In this document: piece by piece, positions 1 to 13,708 of the stretch
Numbering within the stretch: position 1 is the stretch's first letter
Layout of the letters: every line of letters starts with the position of its first letter
Sequence record: PX104378.1
Length of the DNA stretch: 64,000 nucleotides
Reading direction: 5' to 3' (one strand)
From: a phage
Translations under genes and position numbers: made by a program
Notes under the pieces: generated by a model
What the model was told of the DNA's origin: nothing
What the model saw: the letters and a program-made list of their open reading frames with translations, nothing else
The model's database searches: none

Positions 1-401
1 ACAATTTCTGATATCTCGTCGGTCATGTCTTCTTCCCCTAAGAGAGCACCATTTACCCATTCGTATTGTTCAGACACATAATCACAGATTGCATTATATT
101 CTGCTGGGGTTATGTTGTTATGTTTGTAATATTTGAATACATTATCTCCAAAATCTTCGGAGTGTACTTCATACATCACATTAATGATTTTCTTGACAAA
201 TCCATAATCTTGTGTCTCGCGCTCAAGGAAGCGGATAATCTTCACATAATCATCAAAGTTAATCTGATCGCTGATCATCTCAGTGATCATGTAACCATTA
301 ATACCCTCAATGCCATATGTTTCGATGTAATTATCCATACGTTCCATCATTGATTCGCGTGAATCTTCTGAAAGACGAAAATCCTGTAATTGTTTGAACA
401 T
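1..401 (-). CDS. hypothetical acidic protein, 3' end beyond window edge
   Basis: ATG at 401 with GGGAGG SD 8 nt upstream; frame open to position 1 (MFKQLQDFRLSEDSRESMMERMDNY...). Confidence 0.5.
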   Translation of the reverse strand, partial: MFKQLQDFRLSEDSRESMMERMDNYIETYGIEGINGYMITEMISDQINFDDYVKIIRFLERETQDYGFVKKIINVMYEVHSEDFGDNVFKYYKHNNITPAEYNAICDYVSEQYEWVNGALLGEEDMTDEISEI

Positions 402-479: not shown

Positions 480-2531
480 TTACATTTTAAATTTATCTGG
501 CATTGCGTCTACAGATACCAGATCAGCGATAAGCTGACGTAGAGTTGCCTTATCTGCTTTCTTACGTTCGGTTTTAGCTTCGGTAATAAAGCTGGAGAAA
601 GACAGGTCAGAAGCAGGTTTAACAACACCTTCACGGATGAATGCATCACCGTCCGCGATCATCTCGCCAGATTCTTGTAATGCTGCCAGTTCATTTTTGT
701 TCATAATATGTGCCTCAATGTAATAAGTTTCTTGTGAATCCGTCGATGCCGTAGCACGAGTTACCGTATCAAAGGATAACACAACACCGCGAGGAAGTAA
801 AATCTCGCATTCTTTGTAAGCAAATGCTTTGTTACCTACTGGCAATACGGGGATGTTTTCCGCGCCAGCAATGGAGAAAGCAACATTAGCGCCACCTTCA
901 CCGCGAGATCCAGCCATAGAATCTACACCAGCAACGGCACTAGCCACGTTTGCATTCCAGCCGCCAAAAATGTTAGGTGCAAGGGAAGTGCTCACATAGT
1001 TTTTAAAGTAAAACGCTTTTTGCTTACGTGCAGTTTCCCACATTTGCGACCGGAAGTCCATACCACGATACAGAATAGTACCAGGATCAAGTTTAACGCC
1101 ATAGTTGGAGAAGGCATTATCCAGTGCATCGCACATCTTGACCAATTCTTCTGGATCTGCGATGCCTTCAAACTCTTCCAGCTTACGGTCGGTTAGGAAG
1201 TTGTTCATATTGATGTATGCTGCATCGGCATATTCGCTCAACACAAAACCTTCCGCGCCCGGCAGATCAAGATCAATATCTGCCATCATTTCACCCATGT
1301 TGCTAGCAATTGCTTCAAACATACCGGAAGCAACATTACGTAGGGCATCGGTTTTAATCTGTGTGATGTGACTACGCAGCATTTCAGCTTTTACATCTGC
1401 TGGCATAGACTGGTCTACTCGATCCATTGCCAGGGCGGTGATCTTGTTTTCGAATACTTCCTCGCTCATGATTTCTTTTAAGCGTTTGATTGATGCTGCG
1501 ATAACTTCCGCAGACAACGGATCATATTGATCCTGAACTTTTACCAGTTCGCTTACTGCATATTTTGCATCGGCTTCGCTTTCAAAAATAGTACGCATGA
1601 AACCATAGCGAGTGATAATATCACTTGTCCAGTCATTCAGAGAACGAGCGGTTGAACGTTCTAAGGCTTGACGATCAATCAGAGTATTAAACTGTTTCTT
1701 AGGTTCGGCTTCGGTGATATCTTCTTCTGGTTTAAGATTAATTTTTTCTGGATGATTCACGTAGTCGCTGTTATATGTCGCTTGAGTTTTCAGCATTTCT
1801 TCTTTAGTCAAACGAGATTTAGCCGCTACGCGTTGTTCCGCTTCCGCGTTTCGTTCTTCTTCTGACACAAGACTAGCCGCATACGCCTCATCTTTAGTCA
1901 GAGATTCACCAGTAGCCTTAGATACCCAGCGATCACCTAAATCACTTTCTACTTTAGTGAACAAGGATTCATCAAGTTTAATCCCTTTAATCTTATCAAT
2001 CGCCATCCCGCGACGCTTGACAACAACTAAAGCGATCTTTTTGCTGGTCATTACTTCCTGCTGGAATACTTCAAACTTCGGTGTACGACGCACCAAACGC
2101 TCTATAACGCGCTTAACCAGTTCGGTCTTACCTTTCATGCGGGATACGTTAAAACGGAACATAACAGCGTCTAATTGCGCTTTACGGGCTGTTTCCATAA
2201 CCACATCAAAAGCACTTGCCATAACTGCAATCGGGTTATCGCCTAGACCATTTTTAAGCTGTACAATACGACCGCTTTTGTTCATTTCGCACAGTACAAC
2301 ATGTGCGGTCTTGTCACCCATACGAATGATTTTAGGTGTTTTGTTGGTGAAGTTACAAAGACGGACAATCACATCTTTATCGCGTGTCTGTACTGCAAAA
2401 AGCTGTTTAGGATTCTGCTTAGGCTTTAAGCACTGTACCGGAGCAATACTGCCAAAGTTTTCTTCCTCTTCCGTCAACAGCCATTTCTCGAAAGATTCAA
2501 TCATTAGATCGTCGATTTCTAAGTTAAACAT
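480..2531 (-). CDS. alt: Alt-like ADP-ribosyltransferase (virion protein)
   Basis: 683 aa (T4 Alt 682 aa); C-terminal R-S-ExE ART signature (YRGMD, STS, ECEILLPRG); GAGGA SD. Confidence 0.85.
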   Translation of the reverse strand: MFNLEIDDLMIESFEKWLLTEEEENFGSIAPVQCLKPKQNPKQLFAVQTRDKDVIVRLCNFTNKTPKIIRMGDKTAHVVLCEMNKSGRIVQLKNGLGDNPIAVMASAFDVVMETARKAQLDAVMFRFNVSRMKGKTELVKRVIERLVRRTPKFEVFQQEVMTSKKIALVVVKRRGMAIDKIKGIKLDESLFTKVESDLGDRWVSKATGESLTKDEAYAASLVSEEERNAEAEQRVAAKSRLTKEEMLKTQATYNSDYVNHPEKINLKPEEDITEAEPKKQFNTLIDRQALERSTARSLNDWTSDIITRYGFMRTIFESEADAKYAVSELVKVQDQYDPLSAEVIAASIKRLKEIMSEEVFENKITALAMDRVDQSMPADVKAEMLRSHITQIKTDALRNVASGMFEAIASNMGEMMADIDLDLPGAEGFVLSEYADAAYINMNNFLTDRKLEEFEGIADPEELVKMCDALDNAFSNYGVKLDPGTILYRGMDFRSQMWETARKQKAFYFKNYVSTSLAPNIFGGWNANVASAVAGVDSMAGSRGEGGANVAFSIAGAENIPVLPVGNKAFAYKECEILLPRGVVLSFDTVTRATASTDSQETYYIEAHIMNKNELAALQESGEMIADGDAFIREGVVKPASDLSFSSFITEAKTERKKADKATLRQLIADLVSVDAMPDKFKM

Positions 2532-2882: not shown

Positions 2883-3401
2883 TTAGTTATTTTTTAATTG
2901 CTCATCTTGCAATAAAGCAATCACATGCTGGCGATGTTCTTCCGATTGAGGCACACCGAAAAAGTTTGTTTTGTAGAAATACTCTAATCGGTCTTCTCGT
3001 GTGCTCTCTTCCATCATGATCGCGGGTAGTCCGAGATTTCGGAAACGTCGCTTTTCTGCTGGCGTAAAATCGCTGTAATACAGCATAGAATCATCATTAC
3101 CAGCAATGCTAAACTCATCCTTCATGAAGGAGAATATTGCGTTTAAACGCTGTTTACCGTCCACTATTTCGATTTCATAGCGAGAGCCATCATCAATCTT
3201 AGCCATTGCGATAGCACCAACCGGAAAATCATTAATCAGGTTTTCGATAAACATACGTTTGTTTTCGGTGTCCCATACCAAAGGACGCTGATAATCTGGG
3301 TTCATGTTGATATAGCCATCTTCTAACCACGCCTCATAAACAGAGATGACAAAGTTTTTAGTATTGGTATAGTAACGGCGTTTAGGAGTTAAACGGTTCA
3401 T
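2883..3401 (-). CDS. standalone DUF262 / ParB-like domain protein
   Basis: 172 aa; YQRPLVW and IVDGKQRLNAIF match the DUF262 QR..VW and DGQQR motifs; no DUF1524/HNH partner domain. Confidence 0.6.
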   Translation of the reverse strand: MNRLTPKRRYYTNTKNFVISVYEAWLEDGYINMNPDYQRPLVWDTENKRMFIENLINDFPVGAIAMAKIDDGSRYEIEIVDGKQRLNAIFSFMKDEFSIAGNDDSMLYYSDFTPAEKRRFRNLGLPAIMMEESTREDRLEYFYKTNFFGVPQSEEHRQHVIALLQDEQLKNN

Positions 3402-9861: not shown

Positions 9862-10338
9862 TTATTTTTCTTGATGCTCGCGCTCGTACTTTTCGAAATA
9901 AAATTCTACTGGCTGGTCGTGGATTGACAGTAAGCCAAAGCGTTTAGCCGCTCGCAACCCCATATTGCGCTGAATGTACTTCTGGAAGTTCTCGCGTATA
10001 CACTTACGCCAGTATTCTAAGCCCATACAGCTTTTATAAAGATTGCATTGCACACACGCCGGATTCATGTTATCAAGTATATCATGCTCCGGTTTATGCA
10101 TTCCTACAACCTTATACTTCCACGATCCATCATCATTACGGGCAATTCGTCCATTTTCATCATAGACTACTTTTGAGCGTCGTAATACTGGTTTGATGTG
10201 GTCTGCGTGCCAGCGATCCCCTAGTTCCTCGCCACAATAGGCACAACGTCCACCATATTTCATTTTCAGGATCTGGCGTTGCTCTTTCTTTGACAATTTT
10301 TTAGGTTTAGGGGCTTTCGCCCCTTCATTATCACACAT
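9862..10338 (-). CDS. HNH endonuclease (homing-endonuclease-like)
   Basis: 158 aa; CAYCG ... WHADHIKP ... NMNPACVQCN (HNH with flanking Cys pairs); start overlaps ligase stop by 8 nt. Confidence 0.7.
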   Translation of the reverse strand: MCDNEGAKAPKPKKLSKKEQRQILKMKYGGRCAYCGEELGDRWHADHIKPVLRRSKVVYDENGRIARNDDGSWKYKVVGMHKPEHDILDNMNPACVQCNLYKSCMGLEYWRKCIRENFQKYIQRNMGLRAAKRFGLLSIHDQPVEFYFEKYEREHQEK

Positions 10339-11833
10339 CGAATACCTCTTTTACTGTATTTGCAGTGGTCTTGTCGTAGCGAATACGTTTGATGATCGGG
10401 AGAAATAAAGAGAACTCCGGTTCATCTTCTTTACGTGATTTGCTGCGGATATACCCGTTGCATGTCATCTCAATGACTTTTCCAATCAGGTTATGACGGT
10501 CAGCCCATAACATTTCTCGGTCAAGTTCATTTCGACGATCGAACGGAATTACACGTTCGATACCATCATCACCTTTTTCGGTTGTAGTGTCGGTTAATCC
10601 CGATCCGGTGTTAGTCATCATTCGTCCACACGCACTACGGACAGTAAAACCGCCTACCTTATTGGGGTCTTTACTATGCGGATATACATCAACAATTTCC
10701 GCGTCGAAGTCAATCACTTCTTTAAATTTAACCTGATCTTTACTACGGCGATCTTCAAATACACCATGCAGATTTTTAAGGATAATACCTTCTAAGCCCA
10801 TGTTTACATAGCGATGATATACTTCGCGAGCTTCATCGATATTGTTAACTACAGTATTTTCGATTATCTGAACACGAGGATCGTTAAGTTCTTCAACAAT
10901 CTGTTTTAGTTCTTCGAATCGATCTTTATATTGCTTCGTTGCTCTCTCGTTTCCGTAATACACATCACGGTCGATAACATCCCAGACAGTGTAAACAATA
11001 CATTGGGCTTCTTCTTTTGGAATAGTTCCTTTCAGTGATTTGTTGAGGATACCATTTCCGGTCTGACGATCCGCAACAACGGATTCTTTTACTGCTTCCG
11101 CTACTGGCGTTAATGGTATTTCCTCTTCTTCAAATATCCATGACAGAGTACCATCATAAACGCTCTCAACGAAGTTCTGCGCTGGTGTTTGCGAAAGGGT
11201 AGGCATATATACCAATTCGCCATCTAGAACAATTCCACGGCCTCGTAGACGCTCTAAAACAGAAAACAAATCATCCAGCCCCTGGTAGGTATTACCTGAA
11301 CGGGTATAGATTGCTAATGTTTCCCCGTCAATATCAGCCATACCACGAGCGCCATCACTTTTAAGCTGTGCATATGCCGGATATTTGATATTAGCAATAG
11401 CCTTATCAGAATATGACGATGCAAGGTGGCATGGTTGCTGGGGGATCAGTTTCTTCCATACCTTGTTTGCAGTGGTAGCGGAACAACCGCATTCCAGATC
11501 ACGATTCAGGACCATCATTGCAACTTTAGCATCATCTTCTGACAAGCAAGTCAGAGTATCGGTAACTAGCTGTAATGCTGCATTACCAGTTACTTGACGC
11601 GTGGCAAGTTTATTTTTAAAGACCTGCAATGCACCGGATAAAGACAATACAGACGAATAGCGCGATGGTTTATCGTATTTCTTTACGCCAAACGTAACCT
11701 GTTTGCAATATGCCAGATAAAAGCATTCTTTCAGCGTTTCATTGCTTGCAGATTCTTTCAGGATCTTTTCTTTCAGCGATGTTTTGTCGGTCGCTGCAAG
11801 CTGGTTAATGATATTAAGAATTGACATTTTCAC
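10331..11833 (-). CDS. 30: ATP-dependent DNA ligase
   Basis: 500 aa; KSDGARG adenylation motif (KxDG); N-terminal half aligns with recalled T4 gp30 (...TGNAA..., ...RDLECG..., LASSY). Confidence 0.9.
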   Translation of the reverse strand: MKMSILNIINQLAATDKTSLKEKILKESASNETLKECFYLAYCKQVTFGVKKYDKPSRYSSVLSLSGALQVFKNKLATRQVTGNAALQLVTDTLTCLSEDDAKVAMMVLNRDLECGCSATTANKVWKKLIPQQPCHLASSYSDKAIANIKYPAYAQLKSDGARGMADIDGETLAIYTRSGNTYQGLDDLFSVLERLRGRGIVLDGELVYMPTLSQTPAQNFVESVYDGTLSWIFEEEEIPLTPVAEAVKESVVADRQTGNGILNKSLKGTIPKEEAQCIVYTVWDVIDRDVYYGNERATKQYKDRFEELKQIVEELNDPRVQIIENTVVNNIDEAREVYHRYVNMGLEGIILKNLHGVFEDRRSKDQVKFKEVIDFDAEIVDVYPHSKDPNKVGGFTVRSACGRMMTNTGSGLTDTTTEKGDDGIERVIPFDRRNELDREMLWADRHNLIGKVIEMTCNGYIRSKSRKEDEPEFSLFLPIIKRIRYDKTTANTVKEVFDV

Positions 11834-12293
11834 CTCGTTTTGTTAAACGTTCACGAATATCATTGAGGATACTACAAAATTCCGATTCGGTCAATATGGT
11901 CTTTAACGGATCAGTTCCACCTATGCTATGACGCAATTTCTTATTTCCGGTAGCGAGTAATGCTTTACAAAATTCTGGGTTATTCCGTGCCATCGTAACA
12001 AATGCCAGATGTACCAGTCTGTAATAATGCTCACTCATTCTATGAATCGGGCGACCCTGAAAATATAGCATGTGATTCTCTATCTTTTCAGCCCTTCCGG
12101 TTCTTTTTGCTTTGCCACCGTGCATCAAAAAGATTTCTCTTTGTCTCTGAGGGTTCTTAAATCTTAGCCCCTGTAAAAATCCTTCTGTGCTGTTAATATC
12201 GCAACCAAATAGACGGAATGGTCTTTTATTGAAATTACTCAATTCACCCGATGGATAAGGTCCACCCGCATAGATATCAATTTCAGAAGTCAT
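11814..12293 (-). CDS. NADAR / YbiA-like (DUF1768) protein
   Basis: 159 aa; ELSNF ... STEGFLQGLRF ... ALLATGNKKLRH parallels E. coli YbiA FSNF ... TSEHYFQAQKF ... ALLLATAPAKLVEH. Confidence 0.55.
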   Translation of the reverse strand: MTSEIDIYAGGPYPSGELSNFNKRPFRLFGCDINSTEGFLQGLRFKNPQRQREIFLMHGGKAKRTGRAEKIENHMLYFQGRPIHRMSEHYYRLVHLAFVTMARNNPEFCKALLATGNKKLRHSIGGTDPLKTILTESEFCSILNDIRERLTKRGENVNS

Positions 12294-12447
12294 TGAAACT
12301 AATCTCGCTAATCATAGAGAACGGATCATAATCGTCATGAGGAATATCGATAGTAATCGAATGAGGATTTACCCATACACCAAACTGGTCTTCTTCGGTG
12401 AATACTTCGGTATGGATTTCGTGGATGTTTACATTCATAGTTTTCAT
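12283..12447 (-). CDS. small acidic hypothetical protein (54 aa)
   Basis: AAGGAA SD; stop overlaps start of NADAR-like gene. Confidence 0.4.
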   Translation of the reverse strand: MKTMNVNIHEIHTEVFTEEDQFGVWVNPHSITIDIPHDDYDPFSMISEISFNDF

Positions 12448-12499
12448 AATAAAATTCCTTAATAATCAATAACTTACAAAATCATATAGCCAAAATATA

Positions 12500-12518
12500 G
12501 GCGGGATTATTTCCCGCC
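12500..12518 (-). terminator. rho-independent terminator after gene 31
   Basis: GGCGGGA-TTATT-TCCCGCC hairpin directly after stop. Confidence 0.5.
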
Positions 12519-12529
12519 GTTTAAAATCA

Positions 12530-12853
12530 TTAACCGTAAACTACCACAATATTCTGTTTGTGCGTTACAGTCCATTTCAGGTCGATCTCTTCTTCCTTCT
12601 TAACGCCGTTAATAACGTCTGGATGAGGAACTTTATTCATCTTGCCATGTGGCAGTAGAACAATTTTACCCAGCAATTCTTTATCTACAGTTTCACCAAT
12701 ATCAATAATCTTACCTACCAGCGGAATCTCGCCCATAGTGCGCTTTTGCTCAATAATGATCCCCATAGAGCTTTTTACTTCGGTCCCTGCGCTTTCTGCT
12801 TTAGCTTCGATAATTACATAATCACCAAGTGCTTTAGGAGTTTTAACGGTCAT
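12530..12853 (-). CDS. 31: co-chaperonin GroES-like gp31
   Basis: 107 aa; GDYVII, SMGIII, KVPHPDV parallel T4 gp31 GEYVIL, SGLIIG, NVPHPFV. Confidence 0.8.
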   Translation of the reverse strand: MTVKTPKALGDYVIIEAKAESAGTEVKSSMGIIIEQKRTMGEIPLVGKIIDIGETVDKELLGKIVLLPHGKMNKVPHPDVINGVKKEEEIDLKWTVTHKQNIVVVYG

Positions 12854-12894
12854 AATTTTATTACCTCTTCAAATCAATACAGTTTAATGATGAA

Positions 12895-13215
12895 TTATTT
12901 ATAAATTTCGACGATCTGCGCTGGAGTCAGCCCGTCTACATTAATCAGACTATCAAGCCCAAAACTACGGAAACCTTCAACTGCAATTTCATATACTGGC
13001 AAAGATGTTTCTGATTCTTTACGCGGTTTTTCAACATTCGGAACTAACCACTTTTCGTATGTTTCAAACGGCATCAGTGCCGGATCTCTCGTAGCGATCA
13101 TCTCGCGGACAGTACCATCTTTCTTAGTAAACTGCAAAGAGTGAGTACCGACCGAAAACATTTTCTTTAGTGCTTCACGAAGTGCGATATTATCAATTTG
13201 TTCGGTCATTATCAA
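12895..13215 (-). CDS. hypothetical protein (106 aa)
   Basis: ORF overlapping the 3' end of cd by 23 nt. Confidence 0.5.
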   Translation of the reverse strand: MIMTEQIDNIALREALKKMFSVGTHSLQFTKKDGTVREMIATRDPALMPFETYEKWLVPNVEKPRKESETSLPVYEIAVEGFRSFGLDSLINVDGLTPAQIVEIYK

Positions 13216-13708
13216 TACCCTTCAAATCAGTCAATAATGCTTTTGGAATACGCGTGATCGTAATATCTGCATTATTAAGAATATCAGCCCAATCACGCCC
13301 ACCATTTCGATCATATGTGTCGCAATAGTATAGATGTTTAATTCCACTGTTTGCAATTGCTTTAGCGCAATCTGGACACGGTGAAGCAGTACACCACATA
13401 CTAGCACCTTCAATCGATACACCGCTACGGGCAGCAAACAAAATAGCATTTAATTCAGCATGGATCTCGTTTTTCTGTGACCATGCACTATGTTCTGGTC
13501 GTTTTTCTGGGATCATTTTGCCGTCATCATCCAGCCAACCGCTTTTATGTGCATGACAGCTACAATTTACTTGCCCTGCTGGAGTGCCGTTAAATCCAGT
13601 AGAAATGATTCGCCCGTCTTTTTCAATTAGTGCGCCTACCTTCCACGAAACGCATTTAGAGTTCTTTGCGATTAGATAGGCGATCTGCATGTAAGTTTGT
13701 GACAACAT
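13193..13708 (-). CDS. cd: dCMP deaminase
   Basis: 171 aa; HAELNAI and SPCPDCAKAI zinc-ligand motifs (HAE ... PCxxC). Confidence 0.9.
   Translation of the reverse strand: MLSQTYMQIAYLIAKNSKCVSWKVGALIEKDGRIISTGFNGTPAGQVNCSCHAHKSGWLDDDGKMIPEKRPEHSAWSQKNEIHAELNAILFAARSGVSIEGASMWCTASPCPDCAKAIANSGIKHLYYCDTYDRNGGRDWADILNNADITITRIPKALLTDLKGIDNDRTN

Follow-up and report, generated by a model that had tools for sequence, protein, structure and literature searches.

The closest described system is that of phage T4, whose gp30.3 has been renamed AdfN (anti-DarT factor NADAR) by Johannesman et al. (preprint PMC11257639; Nat Commun 2025, PMC11825919). AdfN is both necessary and sufficient for the resistance of T4 to DarTG1: deletion of adfN renders T4 and T2 about 10^4-fold sensitive to this defense, and RB69, with an allele of its own that is 15 residues short, is rescued by AdfN provided in trans. 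The substitutions E36A and K43A of the T4 protein abolish rescue, and purified AdfN strips ADP-ribose from DarT1-modified DNA in vitro (PMC11825919, PMC11257639). On DNA, T4 gp30.3 hydrolyzes G-ADPr but not T-ADPr in vitro (PMC11125620). In a transposon screen, 30.3/adfN additionally came out as conditionally essential, with DarTG1 as the only condition (bioRxiv 10.1101/2025.11.20.689424).

The action of T4 AdfN depends on its context, as the protein is fully effective only in T-even infection, and a further T-even protein is possibly needed (PMC11825919). The 2024 preprint proposed that AdfN needs or prefers hydroxymethylated DNA (PMC11257639). Nevertheless, T4-GT7, a phage with unmodified DNA, still depends on AdfN and is protected by it, and the authors now ascribe the T-even context dependence to an additional phage factor (PMC11825919).

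Identity of the gene

The gene described here is found in a stretch of 64,000 nucleotides of phage DNA (sequence record PX104378.1), referred to as the window.

11814 to 12293, minus strand: gene 30.3 (adfN ortholog), encoding a 159-aa stand-alone phage-type NADAR domain protein

This ORF consists of 159 codons and starts with ATG. The encoded protein matches the Pfam family PF08010 (Phage_30_3, "Bacteriophage protein GP30.3") with an E-value of 2.2e-38 and 131.7 bits, against a cut-off of 36, in an end-to-end alignment that covers profile positions 2 to 138 of 138, and it matches PHROG 652 with an E-value of 4e-45. In pairwise comparison, its identity to T4 gp30.3 is 39% in a full-length alignment (E 9e-31), and that to gp30.3 from RB49 (record AJ550428) is 99.4%. 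The same gene is annotated as 30.3 in JSE, while most GenBank records of Krischvirus-type phages label it "hypothetical protein". By sequence, the ORF is thus identified as the Krischvirus ortholog of T4 gene 30.3 (adfN). The 3-kb stretch around it is 97.6 to 98.6% identical to about 60 Krischvirus genomes, including RB49, JSE, and GoldenSnicker, and the window phage is accordingly assigned to Krischvirus, as an RB49/JSE-like T4-type coliphage.

When the protein is compared as a single sequence, the general NADAR models score low: PF08719 (NADAR) gives an E-value of 0.021 and 15.5 bits, below its gathering threshold of 35.1, and the NCBIfam model "NADAR family anti-phage protein" is also sub-threshold (E 0.028). 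The gp30.3 family profile, in turn, aligns by hhalign with E. coli YbiA over 133 columns (probability 95%, E 4e-8), with the SNF and E-x3-Q-x2-K motifs in register, and finds YbiA (2b3w, E 0.0023) among the PDB sequences. A NADAR profile similarity, as anticipated by the first-pass annotation, is therefore present, and membership of the ORF in the gp30.3/NADAR family is virtually certain.

Other database matches were also considered. A likeness of residues 45 to 151 to the C-terminal part of the D-alanyl carrier protein ligase 7vhv, the unexpected top hit (E 3.7e-4) when the sequence alone was run by phmmer against PDB sequences, is probably due to chance; it is gone when the 76-sequence family profile is used, for which YbiA alone keeps a meaningful E-value. 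The NCBIfam model DltA matches the protein weakly (E 0.19), and a PADLOC search with the protein yielded no match.

Active site and fold

The sequence elements of the protein are the following.

12231 to 12242, minus strand: LSNF motif (aa 18-21), N-terminal signature of the NADAR fold, aligned to SNF of E. coli YbiA
12162 to 12191, minus strand: active-site helix STEGFLQGLR (aa 35-44), which contains STEGFLQ (aa 35-41), E37, and R44
11934 to 11963, minus strand: ALLATGNKKL block (aa 111-120), from the translation
11928 to 11930, minus strand: H122 in KLRHSIGG, last strand, aligned with T4 H123
11823 to 11888, minus strand: C-terminal helix (aa 136-157), from DSSP on the predicted model

The YbiA-like blocks LSNF, STEGFLQ, and ALLATGNKKL, which had been noticed from the letters alone, are all found, and their coordinates are confirmed by translation. 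Conservation was assessed in an alignment of 168 family sequence segments, counting only rows with a residue in the given column, and in a curated alignment of the gp30.3 family (A1) with 76 sequences. L18, S19, and N20 are invariant or nearly invariant across the family representatives. E37, aligned to T4 E36 and to the glutamate of YbiA, lies in a column with Glu in 162 of 166 rows, and the column of H122 holds His in 161 of 164; both are invariant in A1. The glutamate of NADARs that contacts the distal ribose is E43 in P. nicotianae, E88 in E. coli C7, and E36 in T4 (PMC11543638, PMC11257639), and by correspondence to T4 E36 the catalytic glutamate of the ORF protein is assigned as E37.

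The residue in the last strand separates the types of NADARs, being His in phage gp30.3, Glu in YbiA, and Asp in the DarG1/DarT1-associated antitoxins (PMC11543638, PMC11125620). With H122, the Krischvirus protein differs from the DarG1 antitoxin NADARs (BC4488 subfamily, with E. coli C7 and Geobacter lovleyi 8BAT), which hold a catalytic Asp at this position and carry an N-terminal extension that is missing here. It also differs from the YbiA subfamily (E. coli YbiA, PDB 2B3W), which is defined by Glu and includes the riboflavin-intermediate N-glycosidase and YarT-associated antitoxins. E. coli YbiA shares 19 to 25% identity with the ORF protein, depending on the method, gives no protection from DarT1 in vivo, and is located in a LexA-controlled host operon.

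The 159 residues are modeled as a single domain, a core without extra parts, whose predicted fold matches NADAR structures only (the YbiA fold, with two small beta-hairpins flanking a helical core). The helix 136-157 is intact, whereas the equivalent helix is missing from the inactive RB69 allele (PMC11257639). Compared with T4 AdfN, the Krischvirus protein is seven residues longer at the C terminus.

The one deviation among the checked active-site residues is position 44. The lysine that coordinates the pyrophosphate is always found seven residues after the glutamate, as K43 in T4, K95 in E. coli C7, and K50 in P. nicotianae (PMC11543638, PMC11257639), and in T4 AdfN it was mutated to Ala; the Krischvirus protein has Arg instead. 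In the family alignment this column holds Lys in 151 of 166 rows and Arg in 11 (about 7% of the representatives). Several members that are distant from one another have Arg together with both Glu and His, and Arg is shared by the 69%-identical relative P0002 and by Acinetobacter phage KARL-1; the 62%-identical relative P0003 is not among the non-Lys rows. The corresponding substitution K95R in the DarG1 NADAR of E. coli C7 retains hydrolysis in vitro but loses the rescue of cells from DarT1 (Schuller et al., PMC11543638). The replacement of Lys by Arg in Krischvirus gp30.3 is thus plausibly tolerated, its neutrality not being guaranteed by this precedent.

Genetic neighborhood

Gene 30.3 is located in a leftward-transcribed region between genes 31 and 30, with the following neighbors.

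10331 to 11827 (or 11833), minus strand: gene 30, ATP-dependent DNA ligase (Pfam DNA_ligase_A_M, E 5e-22; JSE annotation)
12283 to 12447, minus strand: 54-aa ORF (31.-1 of RB49, phrog_15277), upstream of 30.3, whose start it overlaps by 11 nt
12500 to 12518, minus strand: terminator-like GC hairpin with T-run, just downstream of gene 31, by consensus match only

The gene order in the window and in JSE is 31, 31.-1, 30.3, 30. The position beside the DNA ligase gene, pointed out in the first-pass annotation, is even closer than adjacency, as the 3' end of 30.3 overlaps the ligase start by 14 to 20 nt and contains the ligase Shine-Dalgarno sequence GAGGTGAAAATG. The genes 31.-1 and 30.3 are probably co-transcribed and translationally coupled. 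The hairpin may mark the start of a transcription unit composed of 31.-1, 30.3, 30, and an HNH endonuclease gene; the number of terminator-like matches in the region around 30.3 is not above that in shuffled controls. A promoter scan around 30.3 likewise returned sigma-70-like sites no more frequently than in shuffled controls.

The HNH endonuclease gene (9862 to 10338, minus strand; Pfam HNH, E 5e-6) shares 8 nt with the ligase gene at the 3' end of the latter, and is probably a mobile, homing-type element inserted next to gene 30. The protein of 31.-1 shares 44% identity with its counterpart on metagenomic contig L007, a faster divergence than that of 30.3 (69%).

The T4 order is 31 ... 30.3, 30.2, 30.1, 30, so that two genes precede the ligase there, while Krischvirus 30.3 lies directly against it because 30.1 and 30.2 are absent. 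In a tblastn search with T4 30.1, 30.2, 30.4 to 30.9, and rIII, no match was found in the whole 64-kb window. 30.3 is the one member of the T4 set 30.1 to 30.9 plus rIII for which a homolog is detected in the window, and the genes of the T4 block that can be detected (with the region 10331 to 13708 compared with T4) are alt, 30, 30.3, 31.1, and cd only. This block is highly plastic.

Placement next to the ligase had been taken as an argument for function, and a functional coupling between both genes was considered and rejected. In addition to the two intervening genes of T4, the homologs in more distant phages lie in unrelated neighborhoods: in Vibrio phage QD01 between an a-gt.4-like ORF and a 5'-nucleotidase gene, next to genes 47 and 46, and in Rhizobium phage Y68 near a helicase and a denV-like gene. 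In KARL-1, 30.3 is found between genes 31 and 30, with one gene separating it from gene 30. Adjacency to the ligase is not conserved across T4, Vibrio, and Rhizobium phages, and therefore reflects inherited, lineage-specific synteny rather than a functional link.

The two ADP-ribosyltransferase (ART) genes that had been claimed are encoded in the window, near its beginning.

480 to 2531, minus strand: alt, ADP-ribosyltransferase, full length (ADPrib_exo_Tox, E 2e-9)
3 to 401, minus strand: second ART, N-terminal 133 codons, cut by the window start (JSE annotation "ADP-ribosyltransferase")

The second ART lies in tandem with alt, downstream of it on the minus strand. The presence of both genes within the same leftward-transcribed region could suggest that 30.3 serves the ADP-ribosylation performed by the phage itself, by trimming or recycling the ADP-ribose of Alt and the second ART or by clearing collateral modification of nucleic acids. 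This is highly improbable. The ART genes do not adjoin 30.3 but lie about 9 to 12 kb from it, and no ART gene is found within the 3.5 kb inspected around the homologs in QD01 and Y68. Characterized NADARs cut N-glycosidic base-ADPr bonds and not the arginine-ADPr of proteins (PMC11543638, PMC11125620), and T4 can do without 30.3 when DarTG1 is absent (bioRxiv 10.1101/2025.11.20.689424). For the recycling role suggested earlier, the only remaining tie is the general remark that T4-like NADARs belong, as ARTs do, to the early genes (PMC9503650).

Between alt and the ligase gene, this early region also holds a 172-aa ORF (2883 to 3401, minus strand) that consists of a GmrSD_N/DUF262 domain alone (Pfam, E 4e-20). 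It matches the PADLOC models NsnA (E 1e-20) and PD-T4-2_A (E 5e-12), and represents the N-domain of a defense-type nuclease on its own.

Distribution and selection

Homologs of 30.3 are found in 1510 phage records, mainly of T4-type phages infecting enterobacteria, Acinetobacter, Aeromonas, and Vibrio, and 1502 of them cover at least 80% of the ORF protein. The gene is present in all 60 phage records at the Krischvirus level (at least 95% identical). Beyond isolated phages, 971 relatives were retrieved at E <= 0.001 among 1.8 billion cluster representatives.

The metagenomic contig L007 shares the gene order of the window from rnlA to the ligase gene. Between this contig and the window, 30.3 shows a pN of 0.18 and a pS of 0.70, with a dN/dS of about 0.10 that comes from a single 69%-identical relative and at which dS is saturated; this value is within the range of the neighboring genes cd, ligase, and 31.1 in the same comparison. 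Such a ratio points to purifying selection on 30.3. Together with its being the sole survivor of the small ORFs, it indicates that 30.3 is selectively maintained within a plastic region.

These data bear on whether the Krischvirus gene could be a weakened or decaying copy, in which R44 lowers the activity and protection in vivo has been lost, as in the inactive RB69 allele. Precedents for such a loss are the failure of K95R of E. coli C7 to rescue cells from DarT1 (PMC11543638) and the natural non-functional allele of RB69 itself (PMC11257639). Yet K95R is still active in vitro (PMC11543638), and Arg is seen again in about 7% of the diverse family representatives with E37 and H122 in place, KARL-1 among them. 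The low dN/dS and the full-length conservation relative to the one 69%-identical relative, the occurrence of the gene in 60 of 60 Krischvirus-level records, and the nearly complete coverage in 1502 of 1510 phage records also speak against decay, which is very unlikely.

Among the metagenomic relatives, gp30.3-type NADAR domains are found fused to calcineurin-like metallophosphoesterases, thymidine kinases, and BspA-type leucine-rich repeats, as well as in tandem duplicates. There are also recurrent gp30.3-type proteins of about 470 aa, with an N-terminal part of about 320 aa without Pfam match (the whole set comprising P0058, P0062, P0061, P0019, P0020, P0024, P0038, and P0077).

Proposed function

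Krischvirus gp30.3 is proposed to be a minimal, core-only ADP-ribosylglycohydrolase of the NADAR fold. The protein would bind the ADP-ribose that the host toxin DarT1 places on the N2 amino group of guanine in phage DNA, with the distal ribose placed between E37 and H122, and R44, a basic residue, holding the pyrophosphate. Hydrolysis of the N-glycosidic bond would then make the template replicable again and allow growth of the phage on E. coli carrying DarTG1. By analogy with T4, it is quite likely that Krischvirus gp30.3 removes the guanine-ADPr made by DarT1 from phage DNA and thereby defeats DarTG1.

The identity of the gene, its family membership, its fold, the conservation of the active site, and purifying selection are read from the window, while the substrate (guanine-ADPr in DNA) and the role in counter-defense are transferred from the experiments on T4 gp30.3. 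The anti-DarT role raised in the first-pass annotation thus finds its support in the deletion, trans rescue, and in vitro experiments on the T4 ortholog; the argument from ligase context is weak. The reading is favored by the PF08010 match, the orthology to T4 30.3 and the shared position, the YbiA profile match, E37 and H122, the intact C-terminal helix, and the dN/dS. Points against a role in countering DarTG1 are R44 in place of Lys, the lack of rescue by K95R, the identity of only 39% to AdfN, the need of AdfN for a T-even context, the absence of 30.1, 30.2, and most of the T4 small ORFs, and the sub-threshold NADAR score.

No DarT1 toxin gene is found beside 30.3, whose neighbors are the 54-aa ORF, gp31, and the DNA ligase, and the gene is therefore an orphan NADAR carried by a phage. 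In this it resembles AdfN(Bas32) and AdfN(Bas60) from T5-like and Vequintavirinae phages, phage-borne orphan NADARs that counter DarTG1. These two were acquired independently, belong to other NADAR branches, and do not cluster with gp30.3 proteins; they neutralize DarT1 even in uninfected cells, whereas T4 AdfN does not.

Krischvirus gp30.3 might instead be a NADAR whose main substrate is other than DarT1-modified DNA, with the counter-defense against DarTG1 absent or secondary in this genus. Candidate substrates would be soluble ADP-ribose derivatives or immune signals, ADP-ribosylated RNA, or the products of other guanine- or cytidine-directed ARTs, such as pierisin/ScARP-like or YarT-like toxins. 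NADARs of every family, the T4 protein included, also take G-ADPr off RNA in vitro (PMC12945103), the fusions of gp30.3-type domains to thymidine kinase and metallophosphoesterase hint at nucleotide metabolism, and R44 and the 39% identity to T4 leave room for a shift in specificity. Conversely, the sole known in vivo phenotype of a gp30.3 protein is the counter-defense against DarTG1 (PMC11825919; bioRxiv 10.1101/2025.11.20.689424), three independently acquired phage NADARs all counter this system (PMC11825919), and the ORF protein keeps the catalytic Glu, the His, and the whole fold. Another main substrate is therefore unlikely, and removal of DarT1-made guanine-ADPr is the preferred function.

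A contrast based on the specificity for hydroxymethylcytosine (hmC) was also considered. The cytosine of RB49 DNA is unmodified (PMC4041780), and the hmC pathway is missing from Krischvirus, although a single isolate shows unexplained cytosine modifications (PMC13390438). Under the proposal of the 2024 preprint, a copy of the gene in a cytosine-DNA phage would have been surprising. Since AdfN protects the unmodified T4-GT7 (PMC11825919), the contrast with the Krischvirus copy disappears, and the idea was dropped.

The gp30.3 branch of Krischvirus and Lazarusvirus, with its natural Arg and in phages lacking hmC and most T-even small ORFs, might differ functionally from T4 AdfN. Such a difference is considered rather unlikely. 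The branch might, for example, act without the putative T-even-specific cofactor, and so also in uninfected cells or for unrelated phages, or might alternatively prefer another ADP-ribosylated substrate or toxin.

Significance

The anti-DarTG1 biology of gp30.3 was already published between 2023 and 2025, and RB49 and JSE already have the gene under the name 30.3; a literature search combining Krischvirus and DarTG found no report. The natural Lys-to-Arg variant in the Krischvirus branch is only a mildly new point. As a natural comparison, it gives modest access to NADAR catalysis and to the unexplained dependence of T4 AdfN on host context. If the branch were indeed functionally distinct, the contrast could be used to map the source of the context dependence of T4 AdfN.

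From a practical point of view, the annotation of 30.3 can be corrected, as most records list a "hypothetical protein" although experiments have established that its T4 ortholog acts against DarTG1. In RB49/JSE-type phages considered for therapy, the presence of 30.3 predicts resistance to the defense of DarTG1-carrying E. coli.
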